DNA of 4,211 bases from a virus (lineage: Duplodnaviria; Heunggongvirae; Uroviricota; Caudoviricetes). Location: IMG/VR virus record IMGVR_UViG_2636416140_000003; one strand, 5' to 3'. Positions 2,463 to 4,144 of this stretch are shown here, one piece after another (position 1 is the stretch's first letter; each line of letters opens with the position of its first letter). The position numbers and the translations under genes were made by a program. The notes beneath the pieces were generated by a model. The model saw only the letters and a list, made by a program, of their open reading frames with translations. It was not told the origin of the DNA and ran no database searches.

Positions 2463-2816
2463 CTACCCCAGATGAGTAATCCGAAGTTCATCCATACCAC
2501 AGGTCCTGGCTATTCTGTTGTACTCCTGAACAAGAGCAAATAATTCTGAATTAGCAACCATGAACTCATCGCAAACCCTCTGTATAGCATCACTATTCAG
2601 AATAATAACGTCTCTTCCCGAAAGACGATCAGGAGTACAGAACAAAACTGTCAAACGGCTGAAGGCCTTTGCTCGTGCTGCATTGACTATATCAATACGC
2701 TGCCTAAGGATGAAACACCCCGACGCCTCATCAATATTCACTCTACCCACACCATATGAATGATAAATACTTAATGCTGAAAAAACCATTAGACCGTATA
2801 ACAAATACTCAATCAA
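2463..2816 (-). CDS. Hypothetical cargo protein, 117 aa from TTG at 2816 or 108 aa from ATG at 2789, with an N-terminal hydrophobic segment; no recognisable family
   Basis: Codon-by-codon reverse-complement translation confirms the frame, ending at TAG 2463-2465. The first start is TTG; the first ATG is at residue 10 (2787-2789). Contains 3 AGA, 3 AGG and 3 ATA codons (9 of 117), matching the two tRNAs immediately upstream. It lies directly downstream of Q, pR', tR' and the tRNAs, the slot that stx occupies in Stx phages. Confidence 0.5.
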   Translation of the reverse strand: MIEYLLYGLMVFSALSIYHSYGVGRVNIDEASGCFILRQRIDIVNAARAKAFSRLTVLFCTPDRLSGRDVIILNSDAIQRVCDEFMVANSELFALVQEYNRIARTCGMDELRITHLG

Positions 2817-2926
2817 TACTTAACAGAACTTTTATTTTTGACAAACATATAATATTTTCAACAATATCCTGAGCCAGGTATATTTCAGTATAAGGCTCTG
2901 CCGGAAGGAATCTGGAAGAATGAATA

Positions 2927-3003
2927 TGGCGCGCTGTACTGGATTCGAACCAGTGACCGATTGCTTAGAAGGCAATTGCTCTGTCCGGCTGAGCTAACAA
3001 CGC
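2927..3003 (-). tRNA. argN: tRNA-Arg, anticodon UCU (reads AGA/AGG), argN/argU-like, 77 nt with encoded CCA
   Basis: Reverse complement is GCGTTGTTAGCTCAGCCGGACAGAGCAATTGCCTTCTAAGCAATCGGTCACTGGTTCGAATCCAGTACAGCGCGCCA. It folds as a cloverleaf: acceptor GCGTTGT/ACAGCGC (one G.U), D-stem GCTC/GAGC, anticodon stem ATTGC/GCAAT with loop CTTCTAA (anticodon TCT), T-stem ACTGG/CCAGT with loop TTCGAAT, discriminator G, CCA. Confidence 0.85.
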
Positions 3004-3103
3004 TGAATACCGATAATGGACCGCCATCGGGGACCCGCCCCCGCACCAACAACCCTGTTATCGTGTCGTCTGCTCTTCCTGATAAGCTAATGGCGGTTTG
3101 TGA

Positions 3104-3179
3104 TGGTGGCCCTTGCTGGATTTGAACCAGCGACCTGGCGATTATGAGTCGCTCGCTCTCACCACTGAGCTAAAGGGCC
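3104..3179 (-). tRNA. ileZ: tRNA with CAU anticodon, most likely tRNA-Ile2 (lysidine-modified, reads AUA), ileX/ileZ-like, 76 nt with encoded CCA
   Basis: Reverse complement is GGCCCTTTAGCTCAGTGGTGAGAGCGAGCGACTCATAATCGCCAGGTCGCTGGTTCAAATCCAGCAAGGGCCACCA: acceptor GGCCCTT/AAGGGCC, anticodon loop CTCATAA (CAT), T-stem GCTGG/CCAGC. The framework closely resembles E. coli ileX as I recall it, and Stx phages carry ileZ-argN(-argO) at this position. The CAU anticodon alone cannot exclude tRNA-Met. Confidence 0.8.
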
Positions 3180-3214
3180 GGGAGCAGAATAATAACGGTC
3201 CGTAATTAATTTCG

Positions 3215-3242
3215 CAATAAAAAACCCGCTCAGCGGCGGGTT
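3215..3242 (-). terminator. Rho-independent terminator tR' downstream of the putative late promoter (Q-antiterminated terminator)
   Basis: Minus-strand RNA reads AACCCGC-cgcuga-GCGGGUU followed by UUUUAUUGCG: a GC-rich stem of 5 GC plus 2 AU pairs and a U-tract, about 65-70 nt downstream of the proposed start site. Confidence 0.7.
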
Positions 3243-3280
3243 GTAGAAACTCTTCTAACGTCAGGCATAAAACGCCCATC

Positions 3281-3317
3281 ATTATGACGAATTTACCACA
3301 GATTCCGGAAAAATCAA
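3281..3317 (-). promoter_or_regulatory. Candidate late promoter pR' (-35 TTGATT, 16-nt spacer, -10 TAAATT) with a -10-like CATAAT element in the initial transcribed region (candidate sigma-dependent pause / Q-loading site)
   Basis: On the minus strand, 5 nt after the Q stop codon: TTGATT (plus 3312-3317), 16-nt spacer, TAAATT (plus 3290-3295), then cgtCATAAT. Lambda pR' as I recall it also uses TAAATT as its -10. Placement immediately downstream of Q and upstream of tR' matches the lambdoid late operon. Confidence 0.5.
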
Positions 3318-3322
3318 CCTTG

Positions 3323-4144
3323 TTACCTAGTTACCTTTTTTAACTGCCGCTCAGCCCATGCTTCTTCAATATCAAACCGGGTCACCAGCGCATCATAAAA
3401 TTTCTTAACTGTTTTTTCCCATGACGCGCGTGTTATCTGGTTTGTCACCTCGCATATAGCATTAAATGCCTCCGTTGATGGTAGTCTTTCATAGCCACGA
3501 CCACCACAACGCTGGCAGTCTCTGATAACAGGCATACCACGTTTTACCGACTCTTCACGATGAATGGCGACACCACGCCCACGGCAATCCTTACAGGCGG
3601 TGGAAACCTCACCCTTTCCGCCACACTCCGGACAGGCAACTTTTACCACCTCCCTGACTTTTTTCCATTCTTCCCAGTAAGACGGATACACACCTTTCGT
3701 ACACTTTGCCCATACCGGCGGCTTACCATCCGGATACTGGATCTTATTTGTAAAAACTATGCTTTCAATAAATTTTTCCCCATAGCAACAAGGGCACTGC
3801 TTTTTACTCGCTGCGCTGCGGGCATAATCCTCAAAAGCGTACGAAGCCATAATGCGCATCACTACCGGTTTTATTTCTGCCGGAAGTTTTCTCAACGCCG
3901 CCACACGATCGCACCGACTGAGTGCATAATCTGCCAGTAATTCTGTTGCCCGCGCCCTGTCATTCATACTGATGCCCATTTTCCCCAGGAACGCAGAAAA
4001 ACCCATCTCAGCCCGATTCTGTGTCATGCCCTGCGCGGCCATCACATCAGTGATACTCAGCGCATCTTTTGACGTTGAGGCCGATGCATCGGTCAGGCCA
4101 GGGGATTTTGGGGAGTAGTATTTCGGTAAATCTTCCAGTTTCAT
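3323..4144 (-). CDS. Q: Late-gene antitermination protein Q, large (273 aa) Q82/QuuQ-like type, with a Cys-rich zinc-finger region
   Basis: ATG at 4142-4144, TAA at 3323-3325. The protein has a CPCC motif and three CxxCxGxG motifs (CPECGGKG, CKDCRGRG, CQRCGGRG) within residues 117-217. It sits immediately upstream of the pR'/tR'/tRNA/holin arrangement. Family assignment is from recollection of prophage Q proteins and gene context, not a search. Confidence 0.75.
   Translation of the reverse strand: MKLEDLPKYYSPKSPGLTDASASTSKDALSITDVMAAQGMTQNRAEMGFSAFLGKMGISMNDRARATELLADYALSRCDRVAALRKLPAEIKPVVMRIMASYAFEDYARSAASKKQCPCCYGEKFIESIVFTNKIQYPDGKPPVWAKCTKGVYPSYWEEWKKVREVVKVACPECGGKGEVSTACKDCRGRGVAIHREESVKRGMPVIRDCQRCGGRGYERLPSTEAFNAICEVTNQITRASWEKTVKKFYDALVTRFDIEEAWAERQLKKVTR

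Follow-up and report, generated by a model that had tools for sequence, protein, structure and literature searches.

The window analysed here, a 4,211-nucleotide stretch of DNA from a virus of the Caudoviricetes (IMG/VR record IMGVR_UViG_2636416140_000003), carries on its minus strand a 117-codon open reading frame (ORF; TTG at 2816 to TAG at 2463 in the ORF list). Its last 92 codons are on balance best read as the gene for a genuine 92-residue protein, forming a single-gene 'moron' cassette in the cargo slot of the late operon of a lambdoid E. coli prophage, between the module of late promoter pR', terminator tR' and tRNA genes on one side and the lysis genes on the other. Lambdoid prophages hold their most consequential cargo, the Shiga toxins (Stx) and anti-small RNAs, in this slot past pR'. 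Together with a neighbouring gene for a DUF3927 protein, the 92-codon gene fills exactly the segment in which phage phiP27 and the Stx2a phages carry stx, and comparison of related loci indicates that its family keeps a position between the late-gene antiterminator Q and the holin across the Enterobacterales.

That the ORF is a real gene is indicated by comparison of three chromosomal 92-codon variants, those of the window and of loci L003 and L005. Pairs of these variants differ by 78-91 substitutions in 279 nucleotides (24-28% in DNA) with zero indels, the ratio of nonsynonymous to synonymous substitution rates (dN/dS) between them is 0.26-0.27, and the differences are in excess at third codon positions (19/19/40, 24/23/44 and 24/18/40 at positions 1/2/3). 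The L003 variant is annotated as WP_001017777.1, a sister allele of 92 residues and 63% identity, and the L005 variant is unannotated; both of these, as well as a 91-residue plasmid relative (WP_000662184.1), align from the window GTG at 2741 onward. Within a set of 84 near-identical copies, mostly from IMG/VR, variable sites number 10 in the 276 nucleotides of the core versus 26 in 255 nucleotides of the flanks (Fisher p = 0.003), with changes in the core divided into 6 synonymous and 5 nonsynonymous (binomial p = 0.02 relative to the neutral expectation). In none of the 84 copies is the core disrupted by a stop or an indel. These patterns show purifying selection on the last 92 codons. Together with relatives across the Enterobacterales they bear out the earlier sequence-only reading, which had taken the ORF to be more than a chance open frame, and the same reading's caution that it might be a truncated piece of a larger gene is ruled out by the length of the relatives, which down to about 20% identity are all 89-113 residues long, only the weakest Providencia matches being longer.

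The protein appears to start at GTG 2741 (92 codons and a stop, 2741-2463, minus strand) and not at TTG 2816, which would give 117 residues, or at ATG 2789, which would give 108. In both L003 and L005 there are in-frame stops just 5' of the GTG. Between L005 and L090, which carry the same variant, a 4-nucleotide indel in the leader leaves the extension in the reading frame of the gene in only one of the two; 2-nucleotide gaps separate the leader of the window from those of both, and a further locus, L013, has a 1-nucleotide deletion, and hence a frameshift, in the extension. The 75 nucleotides of the extension hold five nonsynonymous changes against one synonymous change, plus one frameshift, at a density of variation typical of intergenic DNA, and variant density is 9-12% across the leader as against about 4% in the core. 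Each of the 12 relatives in the alignment, which extends down to 21% identity, starts at the position equivalent to the GTG, and they are 91-106 residues long, barring one partial, frameshifted record of 122 residues. The N-terminal extension occurs in no distant homolog among these 12, whose sources are Citrobacter, Buttiauxella, Providencia and metagenome or read-assembly sequences that carry no attribution. To judge from these comparisons, the first 25 codons of the longer frame behave as non-coding leader that is free of coding constraint, and the leader of the cargo gene would run from 2926 to 2742 on the minus strand, taking in the former extension (2816-2742).

The gene layout around the ORF had been read from the letters as Q, a candidate pR', tR', tRNA-Ile2, tRNA-Arg(UCU) and the 117-codon frame, all on the minus strand, and every one of these elements was found. 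Q (4144-3323) encodes a 273-residue antiterminator of the zinc-finger type (Pfam PF03589 Antiterm, E 6.3e-55; 'antitermination protein' in RefSeq). The candidate pR' (3317-3290) consists of a -35 element TTGATT (3317-3312), a 16-nucleotide spacer and an extended -10 element TGgTAAATT (3298-3290); picked by reading the sequence, it has 8 of 12 consensus matches, which is under the threshold of the promoter scan, and it is its placement between the Q stop codon and tR', as in the lambdoid layout, that would identify it as pR'. The intrinsic terminator tR' (3242-3223, or 3242-3213 with its T-run) was returned by the terminator scan and has a 7-bp stem with five GC pairs. It is followed by the ileZ-like tRNA-Ile2 gene (3179-3104; anticodon CAU, CAT in DNA; ARAGORN; Rfam tRNA, 72.5 bits), which is named tRNA-Ile by RefSeq and ileZ in Stx phages, and by the argN/argO-like tRNA-Arg gene (3003-2927; anticodon UCU; ARAGORN; Rfam, 68 bits). 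On the late strand, then, the cargo gene comes after Q, pR', tR' and the tRNAs and before the lysis genes.

Direct comparison with Stx phages supports the proposal that this is the position of stx. The tRNA cassette shares 88-92% identity with the ileZ cassettes of phiP27 and the Stx2a phages. In phiP27, an Stx2e phage, ileZ is followed by a spacer of about 100 nucleotides, argO and, 91 nucleotides further, stxA2e; in Stx2a_WGPS8 the order is ileZ-argN-argO and then stx2A, and by the annotation of the two phages stxA begins 91-92 nucleotides past the last tRNA gene. Homology to phiP27 spans window positions 3219-2914, and homology to Stx2a_WGPS8 spans 3219-2919 and restarts at 2259 at about 70% identity, where the region of the small RNA (sRNA) STnc100 marks the right-hand conserved flank of the slot. 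With both Stx phages the break falls 8-13 nucleotides 3' of tRNA-Arg, and the breaks at 2919 and 2259 make the segment 2918-2260, containing the ORF and the DUF3927 gene, positionally allelic to argO-stx2AB. The latter gene (2427-2296, minus strand; 43 residues; Pfam PF13064, E 5.6e-26) is annotated in RefSeq. The likeness to the stx operons of 933W, phiP27 and Stx2a_WGPS8 therefore extends to strand and position, after Q, pR', tR' and ileZ-argN-type tRNAs and before the STnc100, nanS-p and lysis region, to a left junction within 13 nucleotides of the tRNA-Arg end, and to a right flank held in common with the Stx2a phage. It does not extend to the product: the stx operons encode an AB5 toxin, whereas the window gene encodes an unrelated 92-residue protein, predicted to be a cytoplasmic helical hairpin without a signal peptide.

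The slot is also variable in content, a point that the earlier reading had proposed to check. Phage vB_EcoS-813R8 is 98-99% identical on either side and lacks the segment between 2961 and about 2396. On the left its homology breaks off within tRNA-Arg (window 2962; L088 3859) and it restarts in a diverged DUF3927 gene, so that this phage, having either lost the cargo gene or never acquired it, carries a truncated tRNA-Arg remnant there. In Stx2a_WGPS8 argO-stx2AB takes the place of 2918-2260, and across complete E. coli genomes part of a 1021-bp slot query is matched in 3218 of 5426, with the ORF present in 1314. The gene, present in some related phages and absent from others between conserved flanks, also has a base composition unlike that of the surrounding phage genes, the GC fraction being 0.34-0.42 across 2500-2900 versus 0.43-0.55 in Q and 0.47-0.53 at 2000-2500. 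A 'moron insertion site' 3' of pR', with convergent sRNAs after the moron coding sequence, was described in 2014 (PMC4104026). The window gene resembles the moron of that account in being extra, in being present or absent between conserved flanks and in its lower GC, and STnc100 follows the cargo gene as at the described site; the sRNA layout also matches that of the PasD/STnc100 family in a 2026 preprint. Relatives of the gene likewise carry a terminator of their own, some of them with promoter-like sites. The window copy differs from the described moron in having no terminator of its own before DUF3927, and its own promoter is a candidate only.

The position is shared by relatives in other genera. 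The order Q, gene, holin on the late strand recurs in Morganella (L097, L098), Serratia (L099, L100) and Salmonella (L101), and in Buttiauxella (L096) the gene directly follows Rz; the families of Q, holin and endolysin differ among the phages that bear relatives. L003 and L005 are phiP27-like late regions with the order Q, DNA methylase, gene, followed in L005 by nanS-p, and their copies of the gene are likewise at the stx position. There are tRNA genes 5' of the gene in Serratia, in Salmonella, at one of the Morganella loci and in the plasmid copy. The last of these is found on IncF plasmids of enterotoxigenic E. coli (ETEC; L091 4264-5276), where a stretch containing tRNA-Thr(UGU) is 72% identical to the tRNA-Thr/Gly cassette of a Salmonella prophage (L101 5174-6288), an identity that makes the plasmid copy a remnant of a phage late region. 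The plasmid homolog always lies about 1.2 kb from, and divergent to, a PapB-like regulator and a K88-like chaperone-usher fimbrial operon. A role as a fimbrial regulator of the PapI/FaeA type was considered because of this plasmid context and rejected, there being no Pfam match, a distance of about 1.2 kb from the PapB-like gene (versus about 400 bp from papB for that type) and a phage tRNA-Thr remnant in between; the origin of the plasmid segment in a phage late region also speaks against it.

The only significant family match is to PHROG 2873, a phage family of unknown function, which is matched along its length by the 117-residue form (E 2.2e-69, profile positions 1-108) and at positions 17-108 by the 92-residue form (E 5.6e-58). 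The 16 N-terminal positions of the profile correspond to sequence that is here indicated to be untranslated leader. Searches of Pfam and NCBIfam with the 117-residue form, the 92-residue form and the 12 relatives gave nothing above curated cut-offs, and the defence models of PADLOC-DB, scanned with the same relatives, did not match the window protein, although a marginal partial match to PADLOC HEC-06 (E 0.0016) came up with the plasmid relative. No similarity to any toxin family emerged from the family scans, and a sequence-profile search of the Protein Data Bank (PDB) returned nothing significant, the best hit (E 0.005) being an unrelated SUMO chain. The earlier statement that no characterised family could be recognised has accordingly held up against Pfam, NCBIfam, PADLOC and the PDB. 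Profile searches yielded 24 relatives, none linking to a characterised family, from an exhaustive pass over 1.84 billion representatives, and 54, all labelled hypothetical, from a 5.8-billion-cluster collection. The named relatives are all from Enterobacterales (Escherichia, Shigella, Salmonella, Citrobacter, Buttiauxella, Serratia, Morganella, Providencia and Xenorhabdus), and nothing on the 92-residue protein was found in the literature on DUF3927, mEp460, stx-negative prophage slots and late-operon morons.

Structure prediction with AlphaFold2 from a 12-sequence alignment gave a confident model (predicted local distance difference test, pLDDT, 90.2; predicted template modelling score, pTM, 0.76), with a helix at residues 3-35, strands at 39-41 and 44-46 that form a beta-hairpin, a second helix at 50-81 and a short tail; a model from a 6-sequence alignment concurs. 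The protein is acidic (isoelectric point 5.7) and its second helix is strongly amphipathic. The predicted product is a soluble, antiparallel two-helix hairpin with a beta-hairpin at its tip and with neither signal peptide nor transmembrane segment. The topology of long helix, short beta-hairpin and long helix is shared with antiparallel coiled-coil hairpins such as the prefoldin beta subunit (1fxk/2zdi), TraM (2q0o) and Rop, with Foldseek TM-scores of about 0.66-0.70, but all E-values exceed 0.05 and the PDB profile search found no sequence similarity between these proteins and the window protein. Providencia proteins of about double length (P0097-P0103, 181-211 residues) give weak profile matches (E 5e-7 to 6e-4), which suggests that the hairpin module may also exist fused to another domain.

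In lambdoid phages, RNA polymerase that starts at pR' and is modified by Q reads through terminators, and expression of stx2 depends on such read-through. The stx-like position of the window gene leads to the expectation of the same, Q-dependent transcription logic, and from position and strand it is reasonable to suppose that the gene is expressed by Q read-through on induction. By the established biology of lambdoid phages, the modified polymerase would, after induction, pass tR', the tRNA genes and any local terminators, co-expressing the 92-codon gene with the late genes as happens with stx, while a weak promoter belonging to the gene itself, within the leader of 85-145 nucleotides, may add basal expression in the lysogen. 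Several relatives are bracketed by terminators and may have promoters of their own, so that the gene may be expressed in the lysogen too. As few as about 60-70 nucleotides separate the pR' candidate from tR' (3295-3213, minus strand), a spacing that implies a very short constitutive pR' transcript. In Stx phages the sRNA StxS is described as arising by early termination (PMC7547250), and the implied transcript of the window would be analogous to it. Another hexamer that resembles a -10 element, CATAAT (3286-3281), might act as a sigma70 pause element or as an alternative -10. An Rfam Trp_leader match across the pR'-tR' region was weak and below the gathering score, and was set aside.

The protein itself most likely acts by binding another protein, although this view is held loosely. 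A binding role is favoured because there are no catalytic motifs and the predicted fold is a coiled-coil hairpin, and binding might take place as a dimer or through a partner. Our best guess is that the protein would inhibit or modulate a factor of the host or of a competing phage, to the benefit of the phage in lytic growth.

Several points weigh against the reading of the gene as a 92-codon moron expressed with the late genes. That the gene is transcribed, that it starts at the GTG and that it depends on Q is in each case something we infer. The terminator scan found no terminator directly 3' of the gene in the window, in which DUF3927 starts 36 nucleotides past the cargo stop codon and the next strong hairpin is the end of STnc100. 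The Shine-Dalgarno sequence 5' of the window GTG is weak (GGTGTGGG), in contrast to that of L003, which is AGGAG. The 108-position profile of PHROG 2873 matches the ATG-started 108-residue form from end to end, so that the longer form is evidently in use by some annotators, and the ATG of that form is invariant within the window-type lineage. Finally, the RefSeq pipeline (PGAP) leaves this allele (window 2463-2741; L001 4006-4359) uncalled in all 36 of the near-identical copies among the matches listed. The pipeline does call the sister allele WP_001017777.1 as a 92-residue protein.

Among other accounts of the gene, the one that survives best is that it is a moron of lysogenic conversion, which would be transcribed in the uninduced lysogen, mainly from a promoter of its own, and be of benefit to the host, through stress tolerance, colonisation or phage exclusion, and not to the lytic cycle; we regard this as doubtful, with a modest chance of being right. 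Sigma70-like sites lie some 85-100 nucleotides 5' of the start both in the window (TTGAAA-16-AAAAAT at 2861-2834, 9 of 12 matches in the consensus scan) and in L003 (TAGACA-18-TATCAT at 3887-3916, 10 of 12). The Serratia and Morganella relatives are insulated by an upstream terminator, 130-145 nucleotides 5' of the gene in L097 and L099, and closed by a downstream one (L097 6306-6323; L099 6372-6393), and L003 has a downstream terminator only (4328-4345); both layouts would suit a classical moron. A relative has moreover been retained on the IncF ETEC plasmids, outside any lytic operon, and the neighbouring cargo, iraM and STnc100, targets host physiology. Promoter-like matches, however, occur at chance frequency, with 5 in the window versus 1.9 expected from shuffled sequence and 2 versus 2.3 in L003, and the consensus scan found none in the Morganella leader. 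The orientation of the gene is always that of the late operon, and expression in the lysogen would in any case be compatible with read-through on induction, so that the two are not exclusive. The best promoter-like match of all (TTGACA-16-AACAAT, 10 of 12; 2838-2865, plus strand) is antisense to the cargo leader and faces tRNA-Arg; it may be a chance occurrence in AT-rich DNA. A terminator-like site within the ORF (2627-2609) was likewise judged to be chance.

A broader proposal would make PHROG 2873 and its relatives a conserved lambdoid effector, expressed on induction across the Enterobacterales, travelling with the late tRNA cassette, serving a function in lytic growth that has gone undescribed and co-opted onto ETEC fimbrial plasmids. 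Examples of such a function would be the tuning of lysis or the neutralisation of a defence or stress factor of the host. As a whole we consider this proposal unlikely.

It is quite unlikely that the gene encodes a cytoplasmic regulator of the lysis cassette, that is, a small helical protein that tunes the timing of the holin in the manner of cytoplasmic antiholin helpers. The gene is immediately upstream of the holin in Morganella, is separated from the lysozyme gene by two small ORFs in Serratia and comes directly after Rz in Buttiauxella, and this association survives across differing holin and endolysin families. In the window, by contrast, about 1.4 kb containing DUF3927, STnc100, iraM and DUF1737 separates the gene from the holin. 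Near-identical phages with the same lysis genes do without the 92-codon gene, the plasmid copies have no lysis genes nearby, and no match in sequence or specific fold to known lysis regulators was found.

The form of the gene originally put forward, a 117-residue or 108-residue product whose hydrophobic N-terminus serves as a membrane anchor or signal sequence and which would be an exported or membrane cargo coupled to induction, now seems highly improbable. In its favour, the window and most of the near-identical copies keep the longer ORF open, gene callers in public data often give 117/118-residue or 108-residue versions, the PHROG 2873 profile covers 108 positions, and the in-frame extension is also retained in two further relatives, P0014 and P0015. 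Against this stand the in-frame stops of L003 and L005, the 4-nucleotide indel between L005 and L090, the deletion in L013, the 5:1 excess of nonsynonymous changes at intergenic density and the lack of the extension in all distant relatives. The extension is, besides, only mildly hydrophobic: its highest 19-residue Kyte-Doolittle mean is 1.28, compared with 0.94 for the core and a usual transmembrane threshold of about 1.6, and no conserved N-terminal signal peptide or transmembrane helix is found. Neither the longer versions nor the anchor thus withstand comparison with the relatives.

The last alternative, that the ORF is not a gene and merely a chance open frame in AT-rich intergenic DNA, could appeal to the PGAP blank in all near-identical copies listed, to the weak ribosome-binding site and to the GTG start codon, but it is barely credible and effectively refuted already by the evolutionary evidence, which comprises the dN/dS of 0.26, the lack of indels over about 80-90 substitutions per pair, the third-position excess and protein relatives of 20-63% identity in at least seven genera, to which the PGAP annotation of the sister WP_001017777.1 as a 92-residue protein and the confident AlphaFold2 model may be added.

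Much of the setting is well known, including the pR'-proximal moron as a kind of feature, the PHROG of unknown function and the sister variants annotated as hypothetical. What is new is modest: the systematic omission of the window-type allele from RefSeq, the 92-residue gene model and the conservation of the family's position across Enterobacterales prophages. About 24% of complete E. coli genomes (1314 of 5426) carry in this slot a gene under selection that RefSeq annotation lacks, the number in which this allele is systematically missed being roughly 1200; this is a useful correction for studies of pan-genomes and prophage cargo. The conserved Q-to-holin position across genera makes the gene a defined candidate for screens of counter-defence, host takeover and lysis timing, and the 92-residue cytoplasmic model spares effort on the membrane or secretion hypothesis. 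Until a function is assigned it remains one more small phage protein.

As regards the adjacent tRNA genes, a coupling to rare codons was considered and dropped: 5 of the 10 Arg codons of the core are AGA or AGG and 3 of its 9 Ile codons are ATA, but other genes of the window are similarly enriched, so that the pattern is not specific to the core. Downstream of DUF3927 lies a prophage sRNA of the STnc100 family (2230-2041, minus strand; Rfam RF02076, 132 bits, E 4.6e-30), which ends in a GC-rich hairpin (at about 2075-2045) opposite the 3' end of a convergent gene, iraM. The latter gene, annotated in RefSeq, is on the plus strand (1680-2015), opposite to the late genes, and sits in an AT-rich island with a GC fraction of 0.29-0.35. 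IraM is an anti-adaptor that blocks RssB and thereby stabilises RpoS, and iraM is a second, independent host-directed cargo within the same Q-to-holin interval as the 92-codon gene. Further along the minus strand are genes, identified through Pfam and RefSeq, for a DUF1737 protein (1435-1232), a holin of the phage-21 type (within 1029-709) and a DUF1327/YdfR protein (704-360). The holin frame at 1029-709 is a GTG-started ORF of 106 residues, of which Pfam covers residues 40-102 and for which the RefSeq gene is a 71-residue class II holin; at the holin, too, the longest ORF overstates the gene.

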